From a virus: a stretch of 64,000 bases of DNA. Shown one piece after another: positions 15,800-36,765 of the stretch. The stretch is taken from positions 1 to 64,000 of the IMG/VR virus record IMGVR_UViG_3300028045_000001. One strand, written 5' to 3'. Position numbers and translations under genes: made by a program. The notes below the pieces were generated by a model that saw only the letters and a list, made by a program, of their open reading frames with translations, was not told where the DNA came from and searched no databases. The first letter of the stretch is position 1; the number at the start of each line of letters is the position of its first letter.

Positions 15800-15852
15800 T
15801 TGACTGAAAGAAGTAAAATATAAAACTAATTTAACTATATTGGAGGATGACA

Positions 15853-16470: not shown

Positions 16471-16483
16471 AGATTAGACCTAA

Positions 16484-16526
16484 TGTAGGGTGGGCAATAT
16501 GCCCACCCTGTAGTGTATTTTTTTAT
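16484..16526 (+). terminator. intrinsic terminator
   Basis: AGGGTGGGC/GCCCACCCT stem extended by G-U pairs, with a 5-nt loop, then a T7 tract. Confidence 0.7.
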
Positions 16527-16554
16527 ATTTCTATAAAACTAATTGGAGGATGTT

Positions 16555-17157: not shown

Positions 17158-17159
17158 CT

Positions 17160-17187
17160 ACAACGCCTGGACATGTCCAGGCGTTGT
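17160..17187 (+). terminator. hairpin between paralogs 5 and 6
   Basis: 28-nt palindrome ACAACGCCTGGACATGTCCAGGCGTTGT. No clear T tract, so it may be only a partial terminator or a processing site. Confidence 0.5.
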
Positions 17188-17219
17188 GTAACTTATTTAA
17201 ATACATTGGAGGACATGTC

Positions 17220-17861
17220 ATGAAAAATAAAATTATCAGTATGATGTTAATGGGTGCAATTGTCCTTAATGTAGTTGCATGTGTAGAAGTGACAACTACC
17301 ACAACTACTACAGCTACTGGCGAACCTATTGTAATGGGCGACTACGATATCTCAGGTAATGAAACCCCACTCGAATACATTGATCGACCTTCAAGGAGAG
17401 TTCGATTTTATGATGATTTTTTGAGAAGGACTAATAAGAAAGTTCCCTTAAGTCCTAAAAAGAATGTTGGTGATCTTAAAAAAATATATAAGAAACTTAG
17501 GTCTACTTTTACCTATGTGTCTGACATAAATCAATATGGTGTGGATGATCATTGGGTAGTTATGCCGGACAATAATCGCACAGGGGACTGTGAGGATTTT
17601 GCTTTGACTCTTCGTGAAAAGTTAATTGCAGATGGGTTTGAAAAATCCAACGTGAGATTCGCCACGTGTTACACTCCTAAAAAATATGAGGAAGATGCAA
17701 AGAACAATTACCATGCGGTCCTTATTGTTGAGTTATTTTGGGGAAAAGTGTATGTTGTGGATTATAAGTATTGTGTAGAGTTTCGTAAATTCCCTGTTGA
17801 GAAATGGGATCATGTATTAGATGAGACGGGGAAGTATTGGATCCGGATGGAGATTCGTTAA
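17220..17861 (+). CDS. BTLCP-like cysteine protease lipoprotein, paralog 6
   Basis: GGAGGA RBS. Lipobox VVAC (+2 Val). A Thr-rich linker is followed by TGDCEDFALTLR, YHAV and VVD. Confidence 0.7.
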   Translation: MKNKIISMMLMGAIVLNVVACVEVTTTTTTTATGEPIVMGDYDISGNETPLEYIDRPSRRVRFYDDFLRRTNKKVPLSPKKNVGDLKKIYKKLRSTFTYVSDINQYGVDDHWVVMPDNNRTGDCEDFALTLREKLIADGFEKSNVRFATCYTPKKYEEDAKNNYHAVLIVELFWGKVYVVDYKYCVEFRKFPVEKWDHVLDETGKYWIRMEIR

Positions 17862-17906
17862 TTGTTAACGAAATAAATAATAAATTTTAAACGGGGGGTG
17901 TTTAGT

Positions 17907-18962
17907 ATGGCAGAAGAAGCGTATGAAGAAGAGCTGCATTTATTAGCCCTTATGAAAAAACTATTCACGATGGGCGTTGTTTGTTGCAGTGTTGTTTGGG
18001 CAGGATTTAATGTTTGCAGCACTGTCTGGGATTGGGGCAAGGCAAAGTATGAGACACACAAGCAACAATCCCATACTGAGAAACGGTATCTACGACGAAT
18101 GAAATCACTCGTTGCCAGCTACAATGCTCTCGAATCACAAGTTGCCAAAAACGATAGACGATTAACTGAAATTGAAGGAACGATGACCAGTAAATCCGTT
18201 GGACGAACTTCGAACTCATCTAAGGTCAAACTGTGGCCAAGTAATACTATCAGATACCACATTGATGAGAAAATTGAGGATTGGGATTTAACCCAAATGA
18301 TCGATGAGGCATTTGAAAAAATAAGTGAGAATACTTGTTTAAAATTTCATAAGCTTCCGATACTTTGGAAGGATAGGAGTAGCTTTCTGCTAATCACATT
18401 GACGGAGAGTGACGAGGACTATCCTAATGCGACATTGGGCTATTCGCAAAGAAATCAAGTTGAATTGAGTATGTATTCTGAATTTGATACTGTATACCAT
18501 GAGTTTCTACATGCACTTGGATTGCCCCATGAACACCAAAGACCTGATGCTGAAATAGTCGTTAATTTTGATAACCTTGAAGGTGATAGTACTTGGTACA
18601 GAAAATATCCAAAAGATATGTACCCATACCCTTTGGATAAATTCATCTTTGATGCTGACTCCATTATGGCATATTGCTCATATAGCGAGACAACACAACG
18701 AGGGAAGAAAACTATTAATTACGGGAGAGCGCAGGGGTCACTCAGTCCCACTCCAATTGACTACATGAAGATCAATTGTATGTACTGTGGCTCTAATCCT
18801 CCACCGAAAGAGACCCAGTGGTACATGGCACTACTGAACAGGTATTCCCATAAAGGCTCACCAAAGAAGTTGAAGGTGGTCATAGAAGGGGAAGATGGCG
18901 AACGTGATGTACTTGTCACTTTAGATGAAATGGCATCTTTTGGTAATAAAAAAGAATACTGA
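17907..18962 (+). CDS. astacin-like (M12A) zinc metalloprotease with N-terminal membrane anchor
   Basis: Full astacin signature HEFLHALGLPHEHQRPD (HExxHxxGxxHE) and the Met-turn SIMAY. Has an N-terminal hydrophobic segment LFTMGVVCCSVVWAGF. Confidence 0.75.
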   Translation: MAEEAYEEELHLLALMKKLFTMGVVCCSVVWAGFNVCSTVWDWGKAKYETHKQQSHTEKRYLRRMKSLVASYNALESQVAKNDRRLTEIEGTMTSKSVGRTSNSSKVKLWPSNTIRYHIDEKIEDWDLTQMIDEAFEKISENTCLKFHKLPILWKDRSSFLLITLTESDEDYPNATLGYSQRNQVELSMYSEFDTVYHEFLHALGLPHEHQRPDAEIVVNFDNLEGDSTWYRKYPKDMYPYPLDKFIFDADSIMAYCSYSETTQRGKKTINYGRAQGSLSPTPIDYMKINCMYCGSNPPPKETQWYMALLNRYSHKGSPKKLKVVIEGEDGERDVLVTLDEMASFGNKKEY

Positions 18963-19085
18963 TAGTTACATGACCGGGAAAACAGATCCTCTTGGCGGCT
19001 GGTATAGTGAAGGTATAATGGGATTTGTGAGAATAGAAGACATGATAGATTTTAGTAGGTAAATTAAAACGAAAGGAGACGTAAA

Positions 19086-20084
19086 ATGAAAAAAGGTAAA
19101 ACAACAATCAAGGGCAGTAATGCAAAAATGGCTACATTGGCAATTTGTGGGATAGTTAACATCATTTTTATTTGGACTTTTTGTAGTGCAACGGTGACTG
19201 TTGCAGAGGATGTCGCTGTAACGCACGAGGTACAAGAAGAACAAGTTCCATTTTCAATGGAAGAGCATCGTGTACGATGTCGAAAAGCTACCACTTTAGG
19301 TAGAGAGCACCTTCTGTCAAAGCCCCACACTGTGCAAGGATGGCCCGATAAGGTCATTCGATACTATATCGATAAAGACAGATTGACGGATCCATATGTT
19401 GTTGAAGAAGTAATAAATGTATTCGACGCCATAGCAGAAACCACATGTTTAGACTTCATCCGACTTGATGGACCAGAATCATACAATGTGCAGGTTAAGG
19501 TATTATTGGTAACATCCACTACAAATGGGAGGTACCCCACTTCAACATTAGGATACAATGAGATCGCGAATATAATTAGATTGCGCAATGATTCTCAAAT
19601 ATGGACTATCTATCATATGGTTTTACATGCGTTGGGTTTGACTCATGAGAACCAGCGACCCGACGCAGAGCTTCTTGTTGATATGGATAACATACAAGAA
19701 GAGTTTAAATGTAATTTTGAGAAGCTCCCTGCAAGTTGCTTTCTGTACCCAGTAGATAAGTTCATTTTTGAGGTAAGTTCCATTATGTCGTATAGGCCAT
19801 ACTCTGCCTGTAAAGATTGTAGCAAAAGAACTATCGACTACGGGCGCGAGAAGGAGGGACAACGTGAACCGACATCTATTGATTATATGAAATTGGAGTA
19901 CATTTACTGTGGACTTAATCCGCCACCTAAAGAAACCCAATGGTATTTGTCTTTTCTACATAGGTACCATAATCACTCAAAGCCTGAGGATTTGACGGTT
20001 ACAATAAAAAGTAACGGTATAACTTCATACGTTAATTTTGGTGGCATGGCGTCGCCACTCGGCGATCATGTGAAACCGGAGTAA
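19086..20084 (+). CDS. astacin-like paralog with the catalytic Glu replaced (HMVLH)
   Basis: Reads YHMVLHALGLTHENQRPD. The three Zn-ligand His residues and the Met-turn SIMSY are retained, but the HExxH Glu is Met (ATG at 19617-19619). Has a signal-peptide-like N-terminus. Confidence 0.7.
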   Translation: MKKGKTTIKGSNAKMATLAICGIVNIIFIWTFCSATVTVAEDVAVTHEVQEEQVPFSMEEHRVRCRKATTLGREHLLSKPHTVQGWPDKVIRYYIDKDRLTDPYVVEEVINVFDAIAETTCLDFIRLDGPESYNVQVKVLLVTSTTNGRYPTSTLGYNEIANIIRLRNDSQIWTIYHMVLHALGLTHENQRPDAELLVDMDNIQEEFKCNFEKLPASCFLYPVDKFIFEVSSIMSYRPYSACKDCSKRTIDYGREKEGQREPTSIDYMKLEYIYCGLNPPPKETQWYLSFLHRYHNHSKPEDLTVTIKSNGITSYVNFGGMASPLGDHVKPE

Positions 20085-20180: not shown

Positions 20181-21470
20181 ATGAAAACAGACACTACCGC
20201 GTTCGTAACAAAGTGGGAAGGGAAACGAGTCACGTTACCATTACACAAAAATGGAACATTTGATTTTGTAGTAGACTGGGGCGACGGTGTAGCAGATCAT
20301 ATAACTGAACATGATCAAAAAGAAATTATACACGATTATGAGGATGGCCAGTTAACGCATGAAGTAGCTATATCTGGCACCATAGAAGGGTTTGGATTTA
20401 TTGTCGATGACCCACTTAGTTACACTGCCATAAATTCGCTCCCCTTTGGATCTTTTCCATTAAATAACACCGACGGCTTTGCGCAGCAGTCCAGGACCAT
20501 TGCATTAGTAAAGAAATTCACGAACTGGTGTATGGGGTTTGTCACATCCAAGCAAGCCATAGTGTCAGGACCAAAGGAAGGAAGCCAATTTATGGACTTT
20601 ATTAAGTCAGCCCAAGCTATGGCCCCAAAACCGAGCGACTGCATATTACTCGATGTCTTACAGTGGGGGGCCGTTAAGTTACACAATGGAGGGTGTCAAT
20701 TTACAGATTGTACAAAGTTAAAAGGCTTCAGTGCTAAGGATGTTCCAGATTTATCTAATGTTACTAATATGATGGGCATGTTCCTCAGAGCTACATCGTT
20801 CAATCAAGACTTATCTAAATGGGATGTGGGTAGTGTTACTGATATGAAAGATATGTTCTGTGGCGCTACTTCCTTTAACCAAAATATCTCTAAATGGGAT
20901 GTGAGTAGTGTTACTGATATGAGCGGTGCGTTCCTCAGGGCTGCATCTTTCAACCAAGACATATCTAATTGGGACGTTAGCAGTGTCACTAATATGAAAG
21001 ATATGTTCTTGGGTGCCGAAGTCTTCGATCAAGACATATCTAACTGGGATGTTGGCAAGGTTACTGATATGGCGAATATGTTTAATGGCGCTACATTATT
21101 CAATCAACCCATCTCTAACTGGAATGTTAACAGCGTCACCGATACAGCTGGGATGTTCTATGAAGCTTCATCCTTTAACCAAGACATATCCAATTGGGAC
21201 GTGGGTAGGGTAACTGACATGAGGTTTATGTTCCACAATGCCACTGCCTTCAATCAAGATATTTCTAAGTGGAATGTTGGCAGTGTTAGGAATATGGATT
21301 GTATGTTCATGTCGGCTGTATCCTTCAACCAAGATATCTCTAACTGGGATGTGAGTAGCGTAACTGCTATGGGAGGTATGTTCTATGAAGCCAGCTCATT
21401 CGATCAGAATATATCCGATTGGGATGTAATCAACACGACCAAAGGAAGTCCCATTAAACAAACAAATTAA
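20181..21470 (+). CDS. BspA-like / DUF285 repeat protein, copy 2
   Basis: The N-terminal MKTDTTAFVTKWEGKRVTLPL...VDWGDG is nearly identical to the ORF at 62864. About 9 repeats of 25 residues. No signal peptide. Confidence 0.8.
   Translation: MKTDTTAFVTKWEGKRVTLPLHKNGTFDFVVDWGDGVADHITEHDQKEIIHDYEDGQLTHEVAISGTIEGFGFIVDDPLSYTAINSLPFGSFPLNNTDGFAQQSRTIALVKKFTNWCMGFVTSKQAIVSGPKEGSQFMDFIKSAQAMAPKPSDCILLDVLQWGAVKLHNGGCQFTDCTKLKGFSAKDVPDLSNVTNMMGMFLRATSFNQDLSKWDVGSVTDMKDMFCGATSFNQNISKWDVSSVTDMSGAFLRAASFNQDISNWDVSSVTNMKDMFLGAEVFDQDISNWDVGKVTDMANMFNGATLFNQPISNWNVNSVTDTAGMFYEASSFNQDISNWDVGRVTDMRFMFHNATAFNQDISKWNVGSVRNMDCMFMSAVSFNQDISNWDVSSVTAMGGMFYEASSFDQNISDWDVINTTKGSPIKQTN
20750..21430 (+). repeat. 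tandem ~75-bp coding repeats (DUF285 units)
   Basis: Same periodic unit as at 9220-10320. Boundaries are approximate. Confidence 0.75.
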
Positions 21471-21651: not shown

Positions 21652-22086
21652 ATGATCAGTCAAGAGATAGAACCTATCATTGAATCATTTTTAGTGGTGG
21701 ATAAGGATAATAAGCAGAACGCGATATCATGTTCATTGATGCTTCATGGGAGGGTTAGTCCAGGATATCAGGATAGATACGGCTTACAGTTTAGAGGAAG
21801 ACGCGGTTATAAGCTATACAAGATGACTTGTGCAAAAACCGAATACATCTCACTGGTCCCTGACCCAAATGATGATAAATACCCAATCCATTCTGAAGAC
21901 TGTGGGAGCGACACTTGTTCAAGATTAACTTCCGGAATCTGTCCTGGCACTATCTTTGGTACATACTACACTGGTGCCGAAAGACCCAAACGAAATGAGT
22001 ATTCGGACCATCATTATCAATGCATACATCTGGATGATCAAATCCCACCTTATGATCCCCCACCAATATGCACCTGGGAAGAATAG
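21652..22086 (+). CDS. hypothetical protein
   Basis: AAGGAG RBS. Shares a ~40-aa module and a C-terminal C...C......C.G.I.GT pattern with the next ORF. Confidence 0.6.
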   Translation: MISQEIEPIIESFLVVDKDNKQNAISCSLMLHGRVSPGYQDRYGLQFRGRRGYKLYKMTCAKTEYISLVPDPNDDKYPIHSEDCGSDTCSRLTSGICPGTIFGTYYTGAERPKRNEYSDHHYQCIHLDDQIPPYDPPPICTWEE

Positions 22087-22095
22087 GAGATTGAA

Positions 22096-22629
22096 ATGGC
22101 TTACGGGGACATATTAAGAGTGCGCTCAAGATTCATGGTGACCAGCGAAGAAGCCCCAGAAAAGGCATCCCTTTGCCTGTTAGATGACAGGGGGCAGCTA
22201 TGGTTCGAACGTCACAATAAACATGGCAGATACTTTAGAAAAAGAATTATGGAACTATGGGATCTTCTTAGATATCTCTTTCGTGACAAAAATCTACGAA
22301 GAATACATTCGATGTACATGCTAATAAATGGGGACAATAGTAGAAAGGCGTCAGTCTGTGCATTGGATAGATCGGGAACTCTGTGGATAGAGTACTATAC
22401 TGACCATGGGAGGTTCTTTAAAAAAAGTGACTCGCTTATCTATTATATGGGGTGCAGTCAAATACAATATTATGGACTCAACAAAAGAGAACCGTGTAGA
22501 CGTAATCCTTGTATAGAAAGAGATGCACAGCATTGTGCTGGATGGATAACTGGCACAGTGGTTGATGTCAGTAAGCCATTTAGATTGCCTGCAACTTCAA
22601 AAAAATATGAGCATCAAATAGGCGACTGA
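22096..22629 (+). CDS. hypothetical protein with an internal duplication
   Basis: AGGAG RBS. ASLCLLDDRGQLWFERHNKHGRYFRK is repeated as ASVCALDRSGTLWIEYYTDHGRFFKK. Confidence 0.6.
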   Translation: MAYGDILRVRSRFMVTSEEAPEKASLCLLDDRGQLWFERHNKHGRYFRKRIMELWDLLRYLFRDKNLRRIHSMYMLINGDNSRKASVCALDRSGTLWIEYYTDHGRFFKKSDSLIYYMGCSQIQYYGLNKREPCRRNPCIERDAQHCAGWITGTVVDVSKPFRLPATSKKYEHQIGD

Positions 22630-22639
22630 TGTAATAAAA

Positions 22640-23008
22640 GAAAAGATATCTGTTGGGACACTTTGTTTGGAGGAGAGTACCCAACGAACGAGTCTGGTCT
22701 TGGTGTAACAATGTAGTTGTACTTGAAGTACAAACCCTTAAGTCGGTACACAATTGTTGACGGATTTCTAGTTTAGGGGCATCTACCATGCTGCGCTCGC
22801 AGCCGGTATGATGCATGCTCTACAACAGAAACATTACAATAAACTTGAGAGTGACTGATAGCGGAGGTTACTTATCAACGTGCGACAATTGCTGCACTGA
22901 GGCCAGTTAAACAGTATCGCTGAGAAGTGTGACGACATCAATGCATGAATACTATATGTCCATGGGGGGCGCATGCAGTATCTTAATTGTGACGATGTAA
23001 TAAAACTG
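22640..23008 (+). ncRNA. candidate structured RNA / small inserted element (GC-richer, ORF-free)
   Basis: No credible ORF on either strand. The ends are complementary (AAGATATCTG at 22643-22652, CAGTATCTT at 22976-22984). Several internal hairpins. Flanked by a 12-nt direct repeat and followed by a strong terminator. The strand is assumed from that terminator. Confidence 0.3.
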
Positions 23009-23050
23009 CACATACATATCTATGGGCGACTGCCCATAGATATGTATGTG
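23009..23050 (+). terminator. intrinsic terminator
   Basis: 19-bp perfect stem CACATACATATCTATGGGC/GCCCATAGATATGTATGTG with a 4-nt loop. Confidence 0.7.
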
Positions 23051-23082
23051 TGCTCGTTTAATTTAAACAATGGACGGTGAAG

Positions 23083-23382
23083 ATGCTATATCAAATTAAA
23101 AAAAGGTCCTACCGTGATCTTTATATAAATATGAAAATTAAAACAGATACAGATGCCATAGATTATAAAAATATGAAACTCATAACGTTACCAACAACTT
23201 ACCCGATCACTTGTCCAGTAGAGCTTGTAGACAAACTCGGAAACGTTGTAATGGTTTTCTTTATGGATCGTGCTAATAAAAATAAATTAAATGTTCTACA
23301 TAATAAAACTATTTCAAAAGACAGACTGAGTATAATAATTTCAGTAATGATAACTCCAACCCAAAACAAAATGAGGATATGA
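23083..23382 (+). CDS. hypothetical protein
   Basis: First gene of the operon after the terminator. The start could be ATG 23083 or GTG 23077. Confidence 0.5.
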   Translation: MLYQIKKRSYRDLYINMKIKTDTDAIDYKNMKLITLPTTYPITCPVELVDKLGNVVMVFFMDRANKNKLNVLHNKTISKDRLSIIISVMITPTQNKMRI

Positions 23383-23726
23383 TGGACCGTATTTCTACCG
23401 AATGTAGTTTTCTTTATTTAAAGCCAACGCACAGCTACGATTTAGCTAAACTATCACATAATTATGAGGACATTAATGTAATTCAACTGCAATTAAATGA
23501 GCAATTTAAAGACACCGTCTGGTACATGAATATTTATAATGAATCAGATACCTTTATCGGGACAATTCGGAGATTGTTCGAAGAGGAGCCACGCAGAAAG
23601 GATGACGCTCCCTGCAGTCATGAGGTAGCACTAATGAAGAGCTTGGGCGATAGTACCACAGAAGCTATAATAGACGATGTAGTAGCATATATTTATGAAA
23701 CAATAAACAACTTCGGGGGCCATTAA
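23379..23726 (+). CDS. hypothetical acidic protein
   Basis: ATGA start/stop overlap with the upstream ORF, suggesting translational coupling. Confidence 0.55.
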   Translation: MMDRISTECSFLYLKPTHSYDLAKLSHNYEDINVIQLQLNEQFKDTVWYMNIYNESDTFIGTIRRLFEEEPRRKDDAPCSHEVALMKSLGDSTTEAIIDDVVAYIYETINNFGGH

Positions 23727-23727
23727 C

Positions 23728-24624
23728 ATGAAGGTACTTGTATTTTATCGAGAACAAAATATGGACAGTAGAAGCTGCTTAGCCGTACTTGAATCAGTAT
23801 ACGATAAAAAGAATATTACTCCGATCCCAATAAATTACAATTACTTCATTCGGCCAGAATCAAGGGAATTTGATAAGGTATACGTTGTCGGTATCAACCT
23901 CAGGGGAGACAATAAACTCTTTCTTGATGGATTATGCAAAGAGGTGTTTTACTTTGAACAGAATGAAAAAAGTGGAGCACTACTTCCGCTATTGGTTCAT
24001 CTAAATATTAAAGATATCGATCCATGGAGAATGGAACTATACCGCATAATAGATGCTCACCAAAGAGGGGACGCCTCAGTACATGGGGATGCGATACACA
24101 TAGTTAATTGTGGGCTACGTTACTTGGCGGAGGAATCAAACGAACTTGAGAATGGAACTGGGAAGGGAACCGAGCGCAGCCTTGATTGGAATGTCTTCTT
24201 CTCAAATATGAGTGAGGCATGTGGGCAGATCGATATGGAGGCAGTGGCCATGGTTGGGCAGCCTATATATAAAGCAGAACAAGCGGCATTAAAAATATTA
24301 AGTGGGAGATTGGTGCGGGCGGTACAGTTTAAAGGCAAATCGTGTCTCATAGCAAATCATACAACAGGAGATCTATTTCAATTTGTTCCAAACGTCGATG
24401 AGTACAGCATTCACATAACGTACTCCAGAAATAAACGAGGCAAGGTCAACGTTCGATTGACTACTAAGGATGATACGGTGGATGTGCGAAAGATAGCCGA
24501 AGAGTATGGGAATGGTTCCGGTGGAGGTCCATCTCCAAATATAGCTGGATTCACTTGTGACTTTTTACCAGAAGAAATATTATTTCAGATACACAATAAG
24601 CCACACCCCCTGGTTAAAAATTAG
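23728..24624 (+). CDS. DHH/DHHA1-like phosphoesterase-fold protein with degenerate motifs (tentative)
   Basis: The C-terminal GNGSGGGPSPNIAGF resembles the DHHA1 GGGH..AAG motif. The N-terminal VLVFYREQNMDSRSCLAVL and IIDAHQRGD resemble DHH motifs I and III, but the metal ligands are substituted. Confidence 0.35.
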   Translation: MKVLVFYREQNMDSRSCLAVLESVYDKKNITPIPINYNYFIRPESREFDKVYVVGINLRGDNKLFLDGLCKEVFYFEQNEKSGALLPLLVHLNIKDIDPWRMELYRIIDAHQRGDASVHGDAIHIVNCGLRYLAEESNELENGTGKGTERSLDWNVFFSNMSEACGQIDMEAVAMVGQPIYKAEQAALKILSGRLVRAVQFKGKSCLIANHTTGDLFQFVPNVDEYSIHITYSRNKRGKVNVRLTTKDDTVDVRKIAEEYGNGSGGGPSPNIAGFTCDFLPEEILFQIHNKPHPLVKN

Positions 24625-24665
24625 AACTGGACCAGCAAATACAAATAACGGGAGGATGCATCGGG

Positions 24666-25136
24666 ATGTACAATCAAGACTGTAAAGAGGTAGCTGGCGA
24701 TATAATACAATTGGCCATAGAAGGGAGATTTGATGTCATTGTTCACGGTTGTAATTGTTTCTGTACCATGGGGGCAGGACTTGCAAAAGCAATTAGAGCA
24801 GAATTTCCAGAAGCTTATAAAGCGGATCTCAATACAAAGAAAGGAGATGCATCAAAACTCGGTACCTACACCAAAGCAACGGTAGATAGAAATGGAAACA
24901 CTATAACTATAATCAATGCTTACATCCAGTTTGAGTATGGATGGGTTGGAACTATGGCTCAGTACGAAGCCATACGAAACGTTTGTATAAAATTAAAATC
25001 TGAATTTTCTGGGAAACGATTTGGATTCCCTTTAATTGGGGCAGGATTAGCTGGGGGCAACTGGAAAATCATCGAGATTATTTTGTGTAAGGAATTACAA
25101 GGTGAAGACTATACTGTAGTTAAGTTGCCAACTTAA
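24666..25136 (+). CDS. macro domain protein (ADP-ribose binding/hydrolase fold)
   Basis: Reads GDIIQLA..GRFDVIVHGCNCFCTMGAGLAKAIRAEFPEAY ... FGFPLIGAGLAGGNW. This is the typical short bacterial/phage macro domain pattern. Confidence 0.75.
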   Translation: MYNQDCKEVAGDIIQLAIEGRFDVIVHGCNCFCTMGAGLAKAIRAEFPEAYKADLNTKKGDASKLGTYTKATVDRNGNTITIINAYIQFEYGWVGTMAQYEAIRNVCIKLKSEFSGKRFGFPLIGAGLAGGNWKIIEIILCKELQGEDYTVVKLPT

Positions 25137-25172
25137 TAACATGTGTGGCAATGGTTAAAAAAGGAGTACGAT

Positions 25173-25259
25173 ATGGGAGCTATTATAATAAATAAAACTC
25201 AGCAGGTGGTTAAAATTTTAGACGGGCACTCAACGACAGAAAAGATTTATTATCAATAG
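25173..25259 (+). pseudogene. 28-codon ORF, possible truncated third copy of the KNLT-family gene
   Basis: AAGGAG lies 7 nt upstream. MGAIIINKTQQVVKILDGHSTTEKIYYQ resembles the N-termini MKLKNLTGNDVTIFDDKHN and MKIKNLTSRSVTLLDKNHN. About 100 nt of non-coding sequence follows. Confidence 0.25.
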
Positions 25260-25361
25260 GCCGACATACAGAAATTAAAAGCGGTGTTGATGGAAGTACA
25301 ATTGGGTATGACACACTTTTTAGTAATATTTAAGCTATACAGCTTTAAATCGGAGGCGTGA

Positions 25362-26045
25362 GTGAACACTAAATATAAAAATATGATAGCTGATTATCCA
25401 GAAAGATTGTTCGTTCGTCAAGAAGAAATGAATTTAATGGCCGCCATCATATCCAAGGTTGAACCCTATTATAACCTAAATGATGGTGCGCATAAAGTGA
25501 GCCATGCGGTCGATGTAATGTTACTTGCTATGACTCTCCAAAAAGCCACTATGAAAGGCGTTATAGGTTACTATGAGGATAGAAGAAACATAATAGCATC
25601 CGCGTTGCTACACGACATATTTGTACATAGGGGTCGAGCCTCCCATGAAACGGCAGCAGTATTTGAATTAAATTTTGGCACACTAAAGGATTGGTTTACA
25701 CAAATAATTGAAGAGTTTAAATTAGATAGGAATATTGTAGTAGATGCCATTAATGAACATAGGGCATCGTATAGTGGCGCGTACACATCAATTATATCTG
25801 AGTATGTATCAGGTGCGGATAGAGGTCGTCCTGATATCGATCGTTTATGTAAGAGGGTTAAATCCGGGACTGATGCCACACAAGATGAGCATATGATCGA
25901 TCATATAATTGAGAAATTTGGAAGAGAGGGGTATGCGAGATGGTCAGATAGCTATAAACTGCACTTTGGGTCAGAGTTACGACAAATGCAGGACACTATA
26001 GGGGATAGAAGTAGATTGACTGAAATATATGGAAATCAGATGTAG
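25362..26045 (+). CDS. HD-domain phosphohydrolase
   Basis: GGAGG lies 5 nt upstream of a GTG start. Has H..SHAVDV ... IIASALLHDIFVH (H...HD). The C-terminal half is shared with the ORF at 26927. Confidence 0.65.
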   Translation: MNTKYKNMIADYPERLFVRQEEMNLMAAIISKVEPYYNLNDGAHKVSHAVDVMLLAMTLQKATMKGVIGYYEDRRNIIASALLHDIFVHRGRASHETAAVFELNFGTLKDWFTQIIEEFKLDRNIVVDAINEHRASYSGAYTSIISEYVSGADRGRPDIDRLCKRVKSGTDATQDEHMIDHIIEKFGREGYARWSDSYKLHFGSELRQMQDTIGDRSRLTEIYGNQM

Positions 26046-26117
26046 GGGAAAGTAGGGAGTTGATCATTTTAATCAATAATAACAACCGCATAACATTTAA
26101 GAAAGAGGGAGCAAGTT

Positions 26118-26456
26118 GTGAAATTAAAAAATCTTACAGGTAACGATGTCACTATTTTTGACGATAAGCACAATGCCATATGTGAGCTCGCTAAAAACAA
26201 CCATACGATGTTAGCAATTACACAATCATATGAGGATGAAGGTGAGACGTTTTCTATTAATGGGCACGATGTTCCGGTTCGTATATGTAACCCATACCAA
26301 GTCGGGCTACCTGCACCGGAGGACGGTGTTCTATATGTTGTACCACGTGTGATACTACAGATATGTAGTGAAAGAGAGGATCTGGTAGCCTTAGCATACA
26401 GGTCTCCACAAATTGGGCATGGGCTCATCCCAACTATAGTGTCCCTTTTAAACTAA
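26118..26456 (+). CDS. small hypothetical protein, KNLT family copy 1
   Basis: GTG start after AGAGGGAG. MKLKNLTGNDVTIFDDKHNAI...INGHDVP is paralogous to the next ORF. Confidence 0.55.
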   Translation: MKLKNLTGNDVTIFDDKHNAICELAKNNHTMLAITQSYEDEGETFSINGHDVPVRICNPYQVGLPAPEDGVLYVVPRVILQICSEREDLVALAYRSPQIGHGLIPTIVSLLN

Positions 26457-26490
26457 TTAGACGCATATGAAAGAAGGATAGTTTTAAATT

Positions 26491-26880
26491 ATGAAAATAA
26501 AAAATTTAACTAGTAGAAGCGTTACACTTCTAGACAAAAATCACAATACTATCATTGCACTCAAGCCAGAACCATTTGAGAAGAATAAGGCAGGGGAAAG
26601 GCTCCCCCATTTTTACAGTGAGAACAAGTACGAAAAATGTGGAACTTGTGACATTAATGGGCACACTTTACCGACATTCAAGTGGTCACGTGAAATTGTG
26701 GCAGGAATGCCTGAGTTTAAAAAGGACGAGGCGTATCTCATCAACCATAGCCAACTACTGGACCCAGAGTATGTGCAAATTCTAAAAAATCACACTGTGT
26801 TCATTTTGGATGTACAGACGATGGTTAAGAACATAGATGGATCCATAAAAGGCTATTGCGGATTAGCTAAACTTAAATAA
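26491..26880 (+). CDS. small hypothetical protein, KNLT family copy 2
   Basis: Reads MKIKNLTSRSVTLLDKNHNTI...INGHTLP. Confidence 0.55.
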   Translation: MKIKNLTSRSVTLLDKNHNTIIALKPEPFEKNKAGERLPHFYSENKYEKCGTCDINGHTLPTFKWSREIVAGMPEFKKDEAYLINHSQLLDPEYVQILKNHTVFILDVQTMVKNIDGSIKGYCGLAKLK

Positions 26881-26926
26881 CTAAGATACGACATGTGCTT
26901 ATGTGTTGGTGGTGGAGAAGAAAAGA

Positions 26927-27736
26927 ATGGATGAAAGATGTTCTGTAATGATAGACAGTAATTCAAAAAATCTATGTTTCACAGAAGAGGAAATCGAATT
27001 AATAGATGCCGTCTTATCAATGCTTACGGATGCTCGTAACTTAGATAACAACAGTGTCGATGATAACAATAGCGAAATTAAGGACTCCGATAATGACGAT
27101 AGATGTCTGGGACTACATATATTTGTCGAAGGGAGTATGCGTAATCTAACCCATGTAGTCGAGGTTATGATACTTGCACTTAAGGTGCAAAAAGGTACAA
27201 CAAAGACTCTCGAAGGTAGAAAATCTATAATAGTTGCATCCTTACTGCACGATGGCGTATACGTAGATCGCTATTATTCCCTAATTAGTGAATTCATGCA
27301 AGGCAGTTCAAAGATATGGTTCATGGAATTATGCAAGAAGTTCAAATTGGATTCTCTTCAAATACTGCACACTCTCATTGAAATTAACGGCTCTATGAAT
27401 TGCAATTATCTGATAGTCCCGCAGAAAGGACAAAGCTCATCTGAGAATACGTTTATTTCAGTAGCATCAGTATTTGTGGTTTGTGCCATCGTAGGCAAGC
27501 CAGATATTTCTGAATTATGCAGAGGAATTAGACTATCCTATCATATGATGCCGAGCGAGACTGCGGTGGACTGTATAATCAGAGAGTACGGTAGAAATGG
27601 AACTATGGCATGGCCGGGCACTTATAAGTTATATTTCAAGCACGAACTAAATAAAATGTACGACATTATAGACGATAGGGATAGACTAACTGGGATCTAT
27701 ACCAAAATCGATAAAGAGATATGCCGAGGTAGCTAA
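26927..27736 (+). CDS. HD-domain-like protein, divergent paralog of 25362..26045
   Basis: Has THVVEVMILALKVQKG...VASLLHDGVY. The C-terminal IREYGRNGTMAWPGTYKLYFKHELNKMYDIIDDRDRLTGIY aligns with IEKFGREGYARWSDSYKLHFGSELRQMQDTIGDRSRLTEIY. Has an extra acidic N-terminal segment. Confidence 0.55.
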   Translation: MDERCSVMIDSNSKNLCFTEEEIELIDAVLSMLTDARNLDNNSVDDNNSEIKDSDNDDRCLGLHIFVEGSMRNLTHVVEVMILALKVQKGTTKTLEGRKSIIVASLLHDGVYVDRYYSLISEFMQGSSKIWFMELCKKFKLDSLQILHTLIEINGSMNCNYLIVPQKGQSSSENTFISVASVFVVCAIVGKPDISELCRGIRLSYHMMPSETAVDCIIREYGRNGTMAWPGTYKLYFKHELNKMYDIIDDRDRLTGIYTKIDKEICRGS

Positions 27737-27751
27737 AAACTGAGTGCTACA

Positions 27752-27785
27752 ATAACACCTGTCTCCACGTGGAGACAGGTGTTAT
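27752..27785. terminator. bidirectional terminator between convergent genes
   Basis: Perfect 34-nt palindrome ATAACACCTGTCTCCAC/GTGGAGACAGGTGTTAT. Confidence 0.75.
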
Positions 27786-27795
27786 ACAACACTAT

Positions 27796-29331
27796 TTATT
27801 TTTTCGGGTCGATAACCATCTGTTTTAAAAAATCGATAACTATATCTGTCACCACGGCACTGTTGATGCGCTTAACGATATCCTCATCCTGAGTCCCATT
27901 CAGATTTGAAAGATAATCTACAAAGCTACTATCCAACCTTTTATACAGGGTATAGCCGAACGATTCAGGCGCAGTGACACCAAATACAAGATTTGTTAGA
28001 ACTGTATTAAGTGGTGCCTCTGAGTTACGCTGAGCCTTTGCCATATGGACACAACGATTTAAACTTTGTGGAAGGATCGGATCGCCTTCGTGGTTTGTTT
28101 TGATGTCCCTTTCCCAAGAAAACATTACAGTATTAAACGCCGCAGTCTCATACTTTTTCTTTAAGAAAGAAACCTTGCTGGATATGTCATCCATGCGCAC
28201 AGAGTATTTATCCTCGATCATCTTTGTGTCGCGAACCACAACATCCGATGCGATGCCTAACTCTGGGAGCACACGGTCATTTGGAAATTTAACAAAGAGA
28301 TGCTGGAGGATTTCTTTATCTGTGTGACCATCTGCAATGAATGGGCTGTAGTTATCCATGTTAACGGTTCTGTTCTGCATGATGAGGGTATCATTAAAAA
28401 TATTATTGCGCATAATTATCAAGTTATACGCGCAGCCGTACAGTATTCCTTTAATAACCTCGGCATTATCTTCGATGAGTCGTATGGCATCTGGACCAAG
28501 TGTACTGGAGTGTTCCAATATACCATCTACGGTTGGCTTATAGATCCTCACCATATTGGCGATTTCAGTTGTATTCTGGGCCATGTCTTTAGTTGCCGAT
28601 AATTGGTTGGTCCATTTTTTAACAAAAGTATTTACTCTAGTTGGGGTAAGTAGAGTCTTCAAAACCATTTCGGTATCGTCATAGGTGACATCAAAATTAT
28701 CTATCACCGCATGAATCACAGTATCGGCATATTGTTTTTTAAGGATTAGTGGAGTTGTATCTGGGACTTCGATGCTTTTTAATTTTAGTGCGATCGTCCC
28801 AAGTAATTTAAAACTTGGTTCTTCGAGAGAAGTTTTCGTTAAGTCATGGCAAAAGCTAACTATGTCCATAACTGAACTTACCATATTGATCTCTTCCCAA
28901 TCAACTTCACCAAGCCCGTGTGCCACAGACTTATCGTCATTCCCGTGCTCATAATACTGAATCAGAAATGGGTCCGAGGCAACTAATCGATTCAGTGTTT
29001 CAGTATATGAGCTCTCGATGTCACTTACTTGTACACGAACGTCATTTATTTCTGTATACGATTTGTTGATCCTCTCCGACAAGGCTTCCGCGAGTGTGTC
29101 GATGTTATTTAAAATGTGTTCAGATATAACGTCGATGTTTTGACTGTAGCCGTTCAATACCTCGACGACATATTCCTCTGGGGAGGATGTGGCATCCATC
29201 GTCGGACTGAAGGTAGATAACTTCTCAACATATCCAGCTACAGTTGGATCCGTTATAGTAAAGTCTGGAAGGCCGCCATTCACCATGATGTGCTTGATGA
29301 ATGCTTTTTTCATAAGGTCTAAATTTTGCAT
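27796..29331 (-). CDS. hypothetical protein (511 aa), probable virion/morphogenesis operon member
   Basis: Long uninterrupted ORF and last gene of a 4-gene minus-strand operon. No motif recognised. Confidence 0.6.
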   Translation of the reverse strand: MQNLDLMKKAFIKHIMVNGGLPDFTITDPTVAGYVEKLSTFSPTMDATSSPEEYVVEVLNGYSQNIDVISEHILNNIDTLAEALSERINKSYTEINDVRVQVSDIESSYTETLNRLVASDPFLIQYYEHGNDDKSVAHGLGEVDWEEINMVSSVMDIVSFCHDLTKTSLEEPSFKLLGTIALKLKSIEVPDTTPLILKKQYADTVIHAVIDNFDVTYDDTEMVLKTLLTPTRVNTFVKKWTNQLSATKDMAQNTTEIANMVRIYKPTVDGILEHSSTLGPDAIRLIEDNAEVIKGILYGCAYNLIIMRNNIFNDTLIMQNRTVNMDNYSPFIADGHTDKEILQHLFVKFPNDRVLPELGIASDVVVRDTKMIEDKYSVRMDDISSKVSFLKKKYETAAFNTVMFSWERDIKTNHEGDPILPQSLNRCVHMAKAQRNSEAPLNTVLTNLVFGVTAPESFGYTLYKRLDSSFVDYLSNLNGTQDEDIVKRINSAVVTDIVIDFLKQMVIDPKK

Positions 29332-29563: not shown

Positions 29564-32437
29564 TCAACTGAATGCATTTAGGTCGCCAGTGCTAACGGTC
29601 TCAATGATTAAGTCTTCAACGTAGTGAATTGTGTTGTCTGTATTAAATGTTAATTTTCGTGCTACGATTGATTTCGTTTTGTCATTAACATTAATTAGGG
29701 TTTGAAGTTCCGGATCTCCATTGATACCATAATTGTCAATGCTTAAGATTTGATCACCTAAGGAAGATATGATCTCATCTTGGATAAGAGATATGGATAT
29801 GGTACCGGATTCGACATGTGCCCTTATAATATTTACCACGGATGATTTAAGACTATTTATCATTTCGATGTTATCTATTGTTTTAGTCGAGACGTATAGA
29901 ACTAGATGCATGGTCACGTTCAGCGGCTGATTAACGAACGTATTCTTTTTTGTAACGTAGTTACTATTTCCTATCGTACATATAGGTTCAAAGAACATGT
30001 AGGTTTTTTCAAGCAAGTCTTTCTGAACTCGACTAAGCTCCTCCAAATAATGTCCTATCATTTCAGAGAGATTGATTCCTATCATGGAGGGATCGGTCGA
30101 ATTATCGTACAGTAACCTATAATCTATATGGAGCATGTTGATGGCGTAAATACTTGTTCTTTCTTTCACAACTATGCCATTGCCCCGGTAATCCAAGACC
30201 ATATCTCCAGCAAGATGTGCTACGATCTTGTGCCCAAACTCATCAACGATATCATCGCCCTCTGAAAATAATTTATTTAATTCTACCGCGCCATCAAATA
30301 CAATAAATATGAGCTTACCTTCGTCGTCGTACTCATACACATCGGATGTATATTTTTTATATATTGTTTCTGGATATGTTTGGTACTTGATATCTGTATA
30401 ATTAATATCAACCGATGGATCTATAGTACTGTTCAATCTTTTTCCAAGAACTATAGTTAAATCCTGTCGTATAGTGGTAACAAACTCACTTGGGGACAGC
30501 GTACTTCCTAATATGTTGGAAGACCTTACTTCGAGACTGACCATGAGCGAAAACTTCATATCTATATAGCAGCCGTTAGAGTTCCCACCAGAGGTGCGGT
30601 TAAAGGAATTAATTAGTATGCGATGAAATTTATTTATGTCGTACTCAGTCGTGAGCACGAAGTCATAGTAGGTAACTTTTTCTACTTCGCTACTTTTTAC
30701 TGCATCTATATAAAACTCCTCACCTGAATTCGGGTCTGTCGTGTACCCCCGAATGCGGATATTGTCCTCAATAACATCCTTTAGATCATTGGACTTTAGG
30801 ACACCTATGCGTACTATAAACTTTTCTGTCTCTAGTAAATTATGTATGATGATGCCATTCATTATAGTTAGCTGAGTACTTATCTCCACGTTCTCAGATA
30901 CAAAGACAATTTCTTGTATAGCTGGGTTGGTTAATTCATATATGGATGCAACTGGAAATTCATCCTCTACAGAAAGTCTTATGTGGAATGGGGAAAAAGT
31001 ATATTGTGAGTCATTTAAAATAGACACCCGCTGTTCGATGGAGCGTGCATCAAAAGTAGCTCTCTCCATATCACATACTGGCTCAGCTATATTGCCGTTT
31101 AATTTATATAGTATGGCGGGTAATACTGTGACGGAATTGTCGCTGTTAGTTTTAATATGCGTACACGCTTCTATACTGAGTTCTGATATATTTGTGCGCA
31201 GATTCCCTGCTGGCAAATGAATCCCTTCTGCATCTTTAATAGGCGAATGCGCTATGAAATTACGTGCTGTCAAGTTATCTAACTGTTTGGTGACTGTAGT
31301 TTCTTTGTTAGTAAATAAATTTTTCATTCTTGGCAACGTTATAGCAGCTTCAGTTGTGAATGCATCGTTAATGACTTTGTCTCTGAGTTCTTCAAATGTC
31401 CAGCCATTAGAGCCACCTGAGATTCGATTCGTTGTAGGCAATACTTCTCTGACGGGTATCCTGTTTAATATTTCGGTGTAGGCAAGTGTCCCCTCTCCGA
31501 TGTCACCAAGCGTAAACGACAGGTCGCTGGGTTTTATATTACCTATGTTTATATCTAACTCTCCCTTTGTTTCATAGATCTCCACCTTTAAGTTAGTCCC
31601 AATAGTCCCATTAGAAAAATATATTTGTGGGATATTAATTGATATTGTATTCTCATCGAGATTTACTCTGAGCTTAGCGGTTGGAGTAAACGGATCATAC
31701 GACATGTCCGATAGTGTTTGTCCTATCGGGGACCACCGTTTATTTTTAAGATGTGTTATCACTACAGCATAGAACTTATTTTGTAACTCCCATTTGTTTG
31801 TGTAACCTTGTCCCTTAACAAGGGTCTCCGTATAAATGCGCCTGCGGAATTGATATACTGGAAACTCCATATCTATCATGGCCATATCGTGTAGATGCAT
31901 TTCGGTGTGTTTAATTGTATTATCTACAAGAGTTTTTAATGGGCTATCCATGGATGTATCATGTGATATTAAGAACGTATTTGTTAGCTTGTTGATCTTA
32001 ATTTCAATCGGGTAATATATACCGAAATCAATGCCGCCTATTGTGAACTTTGATGTGGACGGAATTATGATCTTATTGTAGTTGGAGTTGTAGGATACAG
32101 AGTGGTCTATTATGTATTTTTTATCTAAGAGCAGTCTTAGGTTAGTGGACGATGGCAAAGAGTACAACCCAACATAATCCCACTGCGACATATGCCGATA
32201 TAACTCCTTCGAAGTAGTTGCTCGTTTTGAATAACTATCGTTATTCATACGGATCATTTCTTGAGTAGCCCCACTAACCAAATTGCACATAGTCTCTAAC
32301 ATCCAGCAGGGGACGTTATTGCCATCGACTATTTTATTGCCACTCCCATGGCGTTCCTGTAGGTCCCGCAACGCTAAACTTTGAGTCAACATCGGATTTT
32401 TTAAAAGATGGTCCAAGTTATTAATTTTGTCTACCAT
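29564..32437 (-). CDS. hypothetical large protein (957 aa), probable structural
   Basis: GAGGT RBS. The longest ORF in the window. No catalytic motif seen. Confidence 0.65.
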   Translation of the reverse strand: MVDKINNLDHLLKNPMLTQSLALRDLQERHGSGNKIVDGNNVPCWMLETMCNLVSGATQEMIRMNNDSYSKRATTSKELYRHMSQWDYVGLYSLPSSTNLRLLLDKKYIIDHSVSYNSNYNKIIIPSTSKFTIGGIDFGIYYPIEIKINKLTNTFLISHDTSMDSPLKTLVDNTIKHTEMHLHDMAMIDMEFPVYQFRRRIYTETLVKGQGYTNKWELQNKFYAVVITHLKNKRWSPIGQTLSDMSYDPFTPTAKLRVNLDENTISINIPQIYFSNGTIGTNLKVEIYETKGELDINIGNIKPSDLSFTLGDIGEGTLAYTEILNRIPVREVLPTTNRISGGSNGWTFEELRDKVINDAFTTEAAITLPRMKNLFTNKETTVTKQLDNLTARNFIAHSPIKDAEGIHLPAGNLRTNISELSIEACTHIKTNSDNSVTVLPAILYKLNGNIAEPVCDMERATFDARSIEQRVSILNDSQYTFSPFHIRLSVEDEFPVASIYELTNPAIQEIVFVSENVEISTQLTIMNGIIIHNLLETEKFIVRIGVLKSNDLKDVIEDNIRIRGYTTDPNSGEEFYIDAVKSSEVEKVTYYDFVLTTEYDINKFHRILINSFNRTSGGNSNGCYIDMKFSLMVSLEVRSSNILGSTLSPSEFVTTIRQDLTIVLGKRLNSTIDPSVDINYTDIKYQTYPETIYKKYTSDVYEYDDEGKLIFIVFDGAVELNKLFSEGDDIVDEFGHKIVAHLAGDMVLDYRGNGIVVKERTSIYAINMLHIDYRLLYDNSTDPSMIGINLSEMIGHYLEELSRVQKDLLEKTYMFFEPICTIGNSNYVTKKNTFVNQPLNVTMHLVLYVSTKTIDNIEMINSLKSSVVNIIRAHVESGTISISLIQDEIISSLGDQILSIDNYGINGDPELQTLINVNDKTKSIVARKLTFNTDNTIHYVEDLIIETVSTGDLNAFS

Positions 32438-33538: not shown

Positions 33539-34597
33539 ATGAGCTATTCTGATTTAAAAACAGGGGTATCCATTTTCACGAGTCTCTTACGAAAGGTGGA
33601 CGAGATAGGCCCCAAAGCATTAAGTGACTATGTGCGACCTGCGACAATCATGGGGTCCGTTGTGGTTGACATTTCCCTGGGAGATGAGGACATCATACTG
33701 CCGTTGGCGTCCATGTTGAATTCTTTCTACATAGGGTACATAACTACTGCATTAGAATTAAACACTATAATCGAGGGGGGTAAAACTGTAAGAGATGCGT
33801 TGACTATAGTCTCATCTAATAACAACTATATAGAGTTACTAGAGGAAGTCGATGAAAAGTTTTTATCTTGCGAATTAACTGGCGAGTACGAAGTATCCCT
33901 ACAGGCCGATGGTGGCAAACAAGGTAACAAGGTAGAGGCTTCTGTATTCTCTGGGAAAGTAGTCGAACTGAATATTCGCTCAAAAGAACATGATCGCCCG
34001 ATTTCCATAAAACTAATAGTTCAACTACTTTCTCGACAGGTACAGCAATCTGTGATAGAGCAACTCTTTGCAGTTAGCAACAAATCAACAATAGATCAAA
34101 GATGGACTATGTTTAAAACTGGCGAAATTTCCTTTTGGAAAGATTTCATATGGGAGCGGGACCTCGTTAAACGCCATAGGAGCGCACTAAAAAAGGACGA
34201 CACTGGGTACCTATTTGATGAGTTACAATCCCGTTCAAATAAATTAACGAGAAATATCGAAACGAGTGTCGATATTGGTAAGGTGTCTCAGAATTCCGCC
34301 AATAACATACTTATAGTTGAAAAGCGGTTTTTTACGCAGATGGTAAAACGCTTGGGTATAAAAATTGATGACTTTTCCAGCAGGCAGCGATTTATGAGCA
34401 ATAACTACTGCCTTATTATAGTTGTTGTTGATATCATGTACAGTTCATTGGAAGTTTATTTCAATGGCATACGAACGAAAGCCGATTACAGTTTCAAAGC
34501 CGTGCTATCAAACTATGGTGGCGGAGGCAGTAGTAAGACCGAGTTAGCCGAGATCATGGCGCAGTTTCAAGCTGGGAGTTCGCCAAAAGTATTTTAA
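33539..34597 (+). CDS. hypothetical protein (352 aa)
   Basis: AGAGGG RBS. No motif recognised. Confidence 0.6.
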   Translation: MSYSDLKTGVSIFTSLLRKVDEIGPKALSDYVRPATIMGSVVVDISLGDEDIILPLASMLNSFYIGYITTALELNTIIEGGKTVRDALTIVSSNNNYIELLEEVDEKFLSCELTGEYEVSLQADGGKQGNKVEASVFSGKVVELNIRSKEHDRPISIKLIVQLLSRQVQQSVIEQLFAVSNKSTIDQRWTMFKTGEISFWKDFIWERDLVKRHRSALKKDDTGYLFDELQSRSNKLTRNIETSVDIGKVSQNSANNILIVEKRFFTQMVKRLGIKIDDFSSRQRFMSNNYCLIIVVVDIMYSSLEVYFNGIRTKADYSFKAVLSNYGGGGSSKTELAEIMAQFQAGSSPKVF

Positions 34598-34612
34598 TGG
34601 ACGGGAGAAAAC

Positions 34613-35602: not shown

Positions 35603-35713
35603 ATGATAATAATATGAACTCTATTTGCACGTCGGATTATAAATAATTTTTTTTTAGCATGCTGGACTTTATCCGAGTCCGTTTATTTACACACCATCCT
35701 AGGAGGATAGACA

Positions 35714-36727: not shown

Positions 36728-36765
36728 TAATAAGTTCCCAAAGAAGATAGTGTGTGTGGTCCCAG

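Follow-up and report, generated by a model that had tools for sequence, protein, structure and literature searches.

A candidate counter-defence island in a divergent phiKZ-like jumbo phage joins an AdfM-type macrodomain to Crn4-fold proteins lacking the Crn4 active site

Introduction

Does a compact row of genes related to nucleotide-processing enzymes serve a jumbo phage against host defences, and if so, by catalysis or by another route? The question is raised by a gene island at positions 23083-27736 of a 64,000-nucleotide stretch of viral DNA (positions 1 to 64,000 of the IMG/VR record IMGVR_UViG_3300028045_000001; hereafter the window). The island encodes a macrodomain protein, two HD-domain proteins (HD1 and HD2), a DHH/DHHA1-like protein, two small paralogs and two further small proteins, all on the plus strand. 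An earlier note, based on the sequence alone, took this combination for a multi-pronged anti-defence module in which HD and DHH enzymes degrade cyclic nucleotides. The underlying idea has already been published: with macro, HD and DHH domains, jumbo phages would counter signals derived from nucleotides or from nicotinamide adenine dinucleotide (NAD) (PMC7824862).

The island contains one AdfM homolog, one conserved and intact HD enzyme, and four disabled derivatives of nucleotide enzymes. We read it as an accessory island of counter-defence type, variable between strains of a divergent phiKZ-like jumbo phage and acting mostly by a non-enzymatic route. This is the explanation that we favour, tentatively, since its probability as a whole falls somewhat short of an even chance. 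What is new here is the presence of Crn4-fold proteins in a chimallivirus-like phage, together with the pattern of lost active sites across the island.

Profile and structure comparisons rejected none of the macro, HD or DHH assignments made in the earlier note. Its remark that no member matched a characterised anti-defence protein no longer holds, because the macrodomain is a relative of T4 Tk.4 (AdfM) and the small paralogs belong to the Crn4 family. Degradation of cyclic nucleotides was not borne out either: HD1 is YedJ/YpgQ-like, and the DHH-like protein and HD2 lack catalytic residues. The multi-pronged anti-defence role survives in part. The accessory, counter-defence character of the island stands, whereas enzymatic degradation is borne out only in part, four of the proteins being without catalytic residues.

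The locus matters for a particular conflict. Nucleus-forming jumbo phages evade DNA-targeting immunity but stay vulnerable to type III CRISPR, whose signal molecules are cyclic oligoadenylates (cOA). We know of no reported counter-measure to cOA signalling in phiKZ-like phages.

Crn4-fold paralogs

The two small paralogs lie in tandem on the plus strand, paralog 1 at 26118-26456 (112 aa) and paralog 2 at 26491-26880 (129 aa). Their relationship, proposed earlier from a common MK(L/I)KNLT start, is supported by sequence comparison (31% identity, E 2e-7). Paralog 1 matches at 1.7e-10 the PADLOC family Unk_01, described there as a "small protein sometimes fused to CARF". Crn4 was formerly called Unk01. 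This CRISPR ring nuclease, reported in 2025, has a fold not seen before and cleaves cyclic tri-, tetra- and hexa-adenylate (cA3, cA4 and cA6); its Crn4b form cleaves cA3 and cA4 (PMC12830947). The family is known from phages and plasmids, and its phage members have been proposed to be anti-CRISPRs (PMC12830947).

A bridge to the characterised family is provided by gp26 of Paenibacillus phage Scottie, which was found by tblastn with paralog 1 and matches the Crn4b structure 9r7b at 1.9e-16. A profile search for Crn4-type relatives gathered 1,077 family members. An independent hidden Markov model (HMM) was built from 110 of these, leaving out both island paralogs and a third relative, P0003, introduced below. 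Searched against all 1,717 six-frame ORFs (open reading frames) of the window, this HMM returned paralog 1 with 48.7 bits (E 8e-14) and, in an alignment over its full length, paralog 2 with 34.6 bits (E 2e-9), and no other window ORF rose above noise.

Structure prediction leads to the same family. The AlphaFold2 model of paralog 1 has a predicted local distance difference test (pLDDT) score of 85.6, the alignment behind it being dominated by canonical Crn4 relatives. Foldseek placed seven Crn4 chains at the top of the PDB matches (E 2.4e-6 to 1.4e-4, template modelling score ~0.6), led by 9r7b (2.4e-6) and 9sma (5.6e-6); the first non-Crn4 match had an E value of 2.8. The same fold occurs in seven viral proteins of BFVD.

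The paralogs thus share the fold and length class (~110 aa) of Crn4 and Crn4b (PDB 9r7b, 9sma and 9qs9), the MKIKNLT start of canonical phage and metagenome members, and the NL(T), ING.P, GLPxP, YxV and RxD landmarks of the family. They derive from the phage, Crn4b-like branch of the cOA ring nucleases. Besides the residue changes described below, they are set apart by their occurrence as two tandem copies and by the type of phage that carries them. Canonical Crn4b is present in 22 phage records, and no phiKZ-like phage was found among these. The island is the first case in which a chimallivirus-like phage is seen to encode proteins of the Crn4 fold. When 1.84 billion representative proteins were scanned with the paralog pair, only six were recovered. 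Among them was P0003 (118 aa), the only other relative found that lacks the catalytic His.

Two further reading frames of the island resemble this family by eye. The 28-codon ORF at 25174-25260 is preceded by a strong AAAGGAG ribosome-binding site, and its N-terminus (MGAIIINKTQQVVKILDGH) looks similar to the MK.KNLT paralogs. ORF1, the first gene of the island, is also a plausible Crn4 derivative on inspection. Neither candidate, the former as a third, truncated copy, was detected by Crn4 HMMs with filters off.

Loss of the Crn4 active site

The active site of Crn4a is built from H15 of one subunit and R112 of the other, and each of the mutations H15A and R112A abolishes activity (PMC12830947). 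Conservation at these and neighbouring sites was counted in the 110 other Crn4 family members (positions 176, 233, 263 and 268 are in family numbering). The catalytic His of the NLTPH motif (H15 in Crn4a, H17 in Crn4b) occurs in 100% of them and is replaced by Asn9 in paralog 1, Arg9 in paralog 2 and Lys in P0003. The catalytic Arg of the VRD motif (Arg263; R112 in Crn4a, R103 in Crn4b) is equally invariant, and gives way to Gln98, Lys113 and Lys, respectively. Losses extend to the ligand-contact Ser (Ser233; S91 in Crn4a; 98%), which is Pro in paralog 1, Asn in paralog 2 and Asp in P0003, and to two near-invariant Arg residues: Arg176 (98%; Ala, Asn and Thr) and Arg268 (95%; Leu, Ser and Ser). 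In paralog 1 the whole C-terminal VRDxxGRIIG motif is lost and can no longer be aligned.

Paralog 1, paralog 2 and P0003 make up a small clade that has the Crn4 fold and lacks the Crn4 active site. Their mutual identity is only 25-32%, yet all three are full-length and keep the fold-defining residues, which suggests that selection has maintained them and speaks against decay. Because the His and Arg are invariant in the family, essential in vitro and lost in both island paralogs, we infer that the pair no longer cleaves cOA by the canonical mechanism.

The paralogs might nevertheless remain active ring nucleases that use other residues to cut cOA or a different cyclic nucleotide, in which case the island would be an enzymatic anti-CRISPR or anti-CBASS module, much as the earlier note proposed. 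Basic residues occupy both catalytic positions in paralog 2 and in P0003 (Arg or Lys for the His, Lys for the Arg), and His18 and the His50 of an INGH motif are common to both island paralogs. Other metal-independent ring nucleases employ Lys or Ser instead of His, and Crn4b is active on cA3 and cA4. This explanation has to contend with the loss of activity in each single Crn4a mutant, with the invariance of His and Arg in 110 of 110 relatives, and with paralog 1, where Asn and Gln stand at the two positions and the C-terminal motif has gone. We consider it quite improbable.

Our preferred reading is that the Crn4-like pair would bind nucleotide signals rather than cut them. It is drawn from the exposure of nucleus-forming phages to type III CRISPR and from the precedent of Csx15, a ring-nuclease family that includes non-enzymatic members sponging cA4. 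As PfCsx15 illustrates, both cA4-cutting and cA4-sequestering members can belong to one family. The analogy is one of strategy, as Csx15 has a CARF fold, in contrast to the Crn4 fold, and is not found in phages. The viral nucleotide sponges Acb2 and Tad1/Tad2 offer further comparison systems for non-enzymatic binding, which in the island proteins is a candidate property. Under the preferred reading, the pair, possibly joined in a heterodimer, would sequester oligoadenylates (cyclic or linear) or a related nucleotide as non-catalytic sponges.

If signal binding proves true, catalytic anti-defence enzymes can evolve into sponges, and loss of the invariant His and Arg would provide a sequence rule for finding them.

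Macrodomain

The macrodomain protein (24666-25136, plus strand, 156 aa) was assigned correctly in the earlier note. It matches Pfam Macro at 1.3e-5, above the gathering score, and phrog_335 at 2e-45. PADLOC DarG is matched at 3e-6, with the DarG models covering the macro region only. Relatives were found by tblastn in 2,833 phage records, of which about 1,000 are Escherichia phages.

The closest characterised relative is Tk.4 of phage T4 (39% identity over 140 aa, E 6e-26). Both ADP-ribose-binding loops are conserved, as HGCNCF.TMG.G.A and IGAG..GNW; the island sequences HGCNCFCTMGAGLA and PLIGAGLAGGNW align with HGCNCFHTMGSGVA and PRIGAGIGKGNW of Tk.4. The loop Asn is kept as well, and aligns with N23 of phiKZ gp104. 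Among the T4 genes, tk.4 alone is required on a host with DarTG2, its loss sensitises T4 to DarTG2, and it has been named adfM (bioRxiv 10.1101/2025.11.20.689424). Independently, the name AdfM was given to phiKZ gp104, which strips DarT2 ADP-ribose from DNA, and a macrodomain is carried by about half of chimalliviruses (PMC13309987).

Although gp104 falls into the same phrog_335 and comes from a phage of the same chimallivirus-like kind, the island protein is not of its type. The phiKZ protein is DarG-like, sharing with DarG an FPTKxHWR motif that holds the catalytic Lys. This motif is absent from both the island macrodomain and Tk.4, where (I/F)N(A/L)Y(I/T)QF stands at that place. In BLASTP only ~30 residues align with gp104, and the match to the DarG structure 5m3i is weak (E 0.011). 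Assignment as a DarG2- or gp104-type enzyme was ruled out by the missing motif and the short gp104 alignment, together with the Tk.4 match.

By homology, the macrodomain is a Tk.4-type AdfM relative. It is predicted to be an ADP-ribosyl hydrolase against DarT2, because the homologous Tk.4 was tested experimentally, and in the proposed scheme it would remove DarT2-type ADP-ribose from phage DNA. With it, a chimallivirus-like lineage that is very divergent gains a Tk.4-type AdfM.

HD-domain proteins

HD1 (25362-26045, plus strand, 227 aa) is the intact member of the HD pair, and its identification as an HD phosphohydrolase is well supported: it matches Pfam HD at 6.2e-5, above the gathering score, and phrog_3921 at 7.6e-30. 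The metal-ligand set is complete (H48, H84-D85, EHRAS and ADRG, corresponding to H...HD...H...D). Homologs occur in 156 phage records, most of which belong to phiKZ-like phages that infect Erwinia, Salmonella, Aeromonas and Vibrio; HD genes orthologous to it are carried by jumbo phages of these four genera and of Bacillus. Such genes often stand near tail-sheath genes, and in some phages a thymidylate synthase gene or a gene with an NT5C domain adjoins them.

A family profile was searched against the PDB. Its best matches were 2pq7 (3.5e-10) and YedJ (3gw7, 4.8e-10), with YpgQ (5dqv) at 6e-3. The phosphodiesterase PDE10A (E ~0.06) and the HD phosphohydrolase 4mcw (0.16) were at noise level, and no HD-GYP match was found in Pfam. 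A role as cyclic-nucleotide phosphodiesterase is not supported by these matches. YpgQ is a Mn-dependent pyrophosphohydrolase of (deoxy)nucleoside triphosphates, (d)NTPs. With its full motif set and best profile matches, HD1 is by sequence a conserved jumbo-phage enzyme of the YedJ/YpgQ-like subfamily. This subfamily points to nucleotide-pool chemistry rather than cyclic-nucleotide signalling. HD1 would thus most likely act as a phosphohydrolase on (d)NTPs or the nucleotide pool.

Beyond the characterised YedJ/YpgQ-type enzymes, this phage has an additional copy, HD2 (26927-27736, plus strand, 269 aa; alternative GTG start at 26903). The paralogy seen in the earlier note is upheld by BLASTP (1e-33, 29% identity to HD1), but the acidic stretch taken there for an N-terminal extension is an internal insertion of 28 aa after the first helix. 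EHRAS is replaced by insertion plus GQSSS, and ADRG by AIVG, leaving only the H and HD motifs. Without the distal His and Asp, HD2 is predicted to be a catalytically disabled copy.

DHH-like protein

The DHH-like protein (23728-24624, plus strand, 298 aa) matches phrog_4771 at 2.9e-6. No relative was found in a word search of 5.8 billion proteins or by tblastn in phages, and a single-sequence AlphaFold2 model (pLDDT 35.9) was set aside in favour of profile-profile comparison. Against a profile of six phage DHH phosphoesterases of phrog_4771, hhalign returned a probability of 93.4% (E 2.5e-7, 243 columns, residues 2-280), so that homology spans both the DHH and DHHA1 domains. A DHHA1-like protein with substituted DHH ligands, as first suspected, is what emerges.

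The family-invariant residues H11, C14, D72, D94-H95-H96, R161-D162-W164 and H310 are replaced or deleted. H11 has become Arg, D72 Gly and GGGH GGGP, and the DHH segment is missing; the Asp of motif I and the SGA motif alone survive. Homology to phage DHH phosphoesterases such as gp125 of phage EL and gp171 of Bacillus phage AgentSmith, a family that recurs in jumbo phages, runs along the whole length, but their metal-binding and catalytic motifs I-IV (H/DxD, D, DHH and GGGH) are lost in the island protein. Because the lost motifs have established metal-ligand roles, the protein is classed, from its alignment, as a pseudoenzyme. In this respect it is reminiscent of eukaryotic Cdc45, which has an inactive DHH fold. 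Together with HD2, it provides a clean natural example of a DHH or HD pseudoenzyme; both may serve as binders or decoys, or carry new functions.

An island made of pseudoenzyme sponges would extend the binding reading to the whole set. It would comprise a Crn4b-derived sponge pair for cOA or some other immune nucleotide, perhaps an asymmetric heterodimer suited to cA3, with the dead DHH and HD proteins as binders or decoys. We hold this extended scheme to be unlikely; if true, it would be an undescribed way to make anti-defence sponges.

In other jumbo phages, DHH genes lie among replication and repair genes (e.g., RNase H, ligases and dTMP kinase), and that of phage EL sits between RNase H and RNA ligase. 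In the phiKZ-like Bacillus phage AgentSmith, a DHH gene of phrog_4771, fully intact, lies ~2.6 kb downstream of an HD1 homolog on the same strand. This was the only other HD-DHH proximity seen. A general linkage of HD genes to Crn4-like or DHH genes was considered and dropped, as Crn4-like ORFs were present at 0 of 11 loci from other phages, 6 of which span an HD1 homolog.

The EL arrangement bears on another explanation, in which the island would be an RNA-repair or NAD/ADP-ribose module: the macrodomain would be an Appr-1''-phosphatase, and the HD and DHH proteins would process RNA ends or fragments after attack by host ribonucleases. The annotation of T4 Tk.4 carries an A1pp phosphatase motif, the PDB relatives of the island macrodomain include Poa1p-type ADP-ribose 1''-phosphate phosphatases, and macro, HD and 2H domains have been discussed in jumbo-phage RNA repair by Iyer et al. 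What speaks against such a module is the absence of RNA ligase, kinase/phosphatase and KptA genes within or beside the island (ORF, Pfam and PHROG scans), the lack of catalytic residues in the DHH-like protein, and the demonstrated DarTG2 phenotype of Tk.4. It is the least probable of the explanations, and only a slight chance is given to it.

Variation between strains and weighing of the explanations

The gene for P0003 bears on island content. It is encoded on a 533-bp contig, k141_3190937, from the metagenome sample ERZ27250555, which also yielded the contig holding the window. The last 98 nt of this short contig are 100% identical to window positions 27751-27848, comprising the 3' terminator and the sequence that follows it, and the upstream 435 nt have no nucleotide similarity to the window. 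The P0003 gene lies directly against the shared terminator, in place of HD2, and the hairpin at 27752-27785 is the recombination breakpoint in the strain variant. These data suggest a co-occurring strain with different island content, and hence that the content varies between strains. Such gene turnover at a fixed boundary is as expected of a conflict island.

The island may also be an ordinary mosaic of accessory genes and genes of nucleotide metabolism. In that explanation, the macrodomain would be the only counter-defence gene and HD1 a housekeeping nucleotide hydrolase, with the DHH-like protein, HD2 and the Crn4-like pair as drifting duplicates or relics that share no coordinated anti-defence role. 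HD1 stands at a similar position in 156 jumbo phages, next to thymidylate synthase or NT5C genes in some of them. DHH genes elsewhere keep company with replication and repair genes, four island proteins lack catalytic residues, tandem paralog arrays abound in the window, and relatives of the island outside this phage were not found. Less easily reconciled with drift are the eight intact and closely packed ORFs and the three Crn4 members without the catalytic His, whose low mutual identity and kept fold-defining residues indicate selection. The combination of an AdfM-type macrodomain, Crn4 folds and strain-level turnover at a fixed boundary is, moreover, typical of conflict islands. We regard a mosaic as possible but doubtful.

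Several points weigh against the counter-defence island that we prefer. The Crn4 side chains that contact cOA (Ser91, Arg112 and His15) are mostly changed in the paralogs, and therefore ligand binding itself may be lost. It has been argued that type III CRISPR makes too much cOA for sponging to be a well-suited response. Tk.4 and the island macrodomain both lack the "FPTK" Lys of DarG and phiKZ AdfM, so their chemistry may differ. The position and neighbours of HD1 (thymidylate synthase, NT5C) point to nucleotide metabolism, not defence. The evidence for a strain variant rests on one assembly contig of 533 bp. Finally, in a phage so rich in tandem paralog arrays, the degenerate duplicates may be drifting copies.

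Architecture of the island

All eight plus-strand ORFs were recovered at the starts originally given, and independent gene calls on identical metagenome contigs produced the same gene set. The row opens with ORF1 (23083-23382, 99 aa) and ORF2 (23379-23726, 115 aa), which overlap by 4 nt. They were listed from the start as small unknowns, and they remain without detectable relatives. ORF1 had no match in Pfam, NCBIfam or PADLOC, nor by tblastn against phages, and reached phrog_8645 only weakly (0.018). ORF2 gave no significant match in any of the searches made, Pfam and PHROGs among them.

Two hairpins bound the island. The 5' hairpin (23008-23051) is perfect, with 19-20 bp and a free energy of -35 kcal/mol (z -8.9), and the 3' hairpin (27752-27785) is a perfect palindrome of 15-17 bp with -26 to -28.5 kcal/mol (z -5.7). 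Both are far stabler than shuffled controls. Their U-tracts are imperfect, and a simple terminator scan flagged the 5' hairpin on the minus strand only and missed the 3' one. The latter sits between convergent genes and probably works in both directions.

Intergenic distances are 0-72 nt, apart from the 225-nt gap between the macrodomain and HD1 genes (25137-25361), which includes the 28-codon ORF described above. This gap is a possible region for an internal promoter. Sigma-70-like sites are rarer than expected by chance, in a scan whose sigma-70 model does not cover the promoters of this phage type. Transcription of the island probably proceeds in one or two plus-strand units, bounded by the hairpin terminators. 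The single unit between strong terminators claimed earlier is thus retained as regards real and stable hairpins, but the imperfect U-tracts and the 225-nt gap leave room for two units.

Upstream of the 5' hairpin lies an ORF-free gap of 379 nt (22630-23008). Its predicted fold is moderately stabler than shuffled controls (z -3.1), and an Rfam search of the gap gave no match beyond sub-threshold microRNA-like matches to the hairpin itself.

Two Cys-/His-rich ORFs without detectable relatives occupy 21652-22629, immediately upstream of the island, and they may be part of the same variable region. One of them, of 177 aa, contains an internal duplication (RGQLWFERHNKHGRYFRKR / SGTLWIEYYTDHGRFFKKS).

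The phage and the remainder of the window

The origin of the DNA was traced through its other genes. Adjoining the island on the minus strand, a 957-aa ORF (29564-32437) is homologous to phiKZ gp87 at ~25% identity over 98% of its length, and gp87-type homologs of this ORF were found in 280 jumbo-phage records. Matches to jumbo-phage PHROGs, to a GroEL-like chaperonin and to a DNA polymerase were obtained for other ORFs of the window. Megablast of the window against 50,697 phage records returned no close DNA match. From the gp87 homolog, the jumbo-phage PHROGs and the lack of a close DNA match, we conclude that the source is a jumbo phage of phiKZ-like (chimallivirus-like) type, uncultured and very divergent.

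A 122.5-kb ENA metagenome contig from sample ERZ27250555 contains the window at 100% identity, and the contigs that matched it were all identical or 99.9% identical. Searches of viral and metagenome contigs with the neighbouring 511-aa and 957-aa proteins found no relatives of the phage or its island, an exact search of JGI metagenomes for the terminator sequence found none, and none of the searches made revealed island relatives outside this phage. Neither the window nor the upstream gap yielded a meaningful hit in Rfam and tRNA scans.

Many tandem paralog arrays are carried in the window. At 15847-20084, tandem protease-like paralogs include three ORFs with marks of Peptidase_C93 (a transglutaminase-like cysteine protease) and two with marks of Astacin metalloproteases, a set unusual in a phage. 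Six successive plus-strand ORFs of ~295-350 aa at 33539-41023 resemble a tandem paralog array, the first of them matching phrog_3239. Two proteins, at 8250-10379 and 20181-21470, have repeat-rich domains in common (phrog_17273, phrog_3649 and phrog_35701), with 5-8 repeated stretches each. The GroEL-like chaperonin (43196-45010, minus strand, 604 aa) matches phrog_5725 at 1.6e-21; phage EL likewise encodes a chaperonin.

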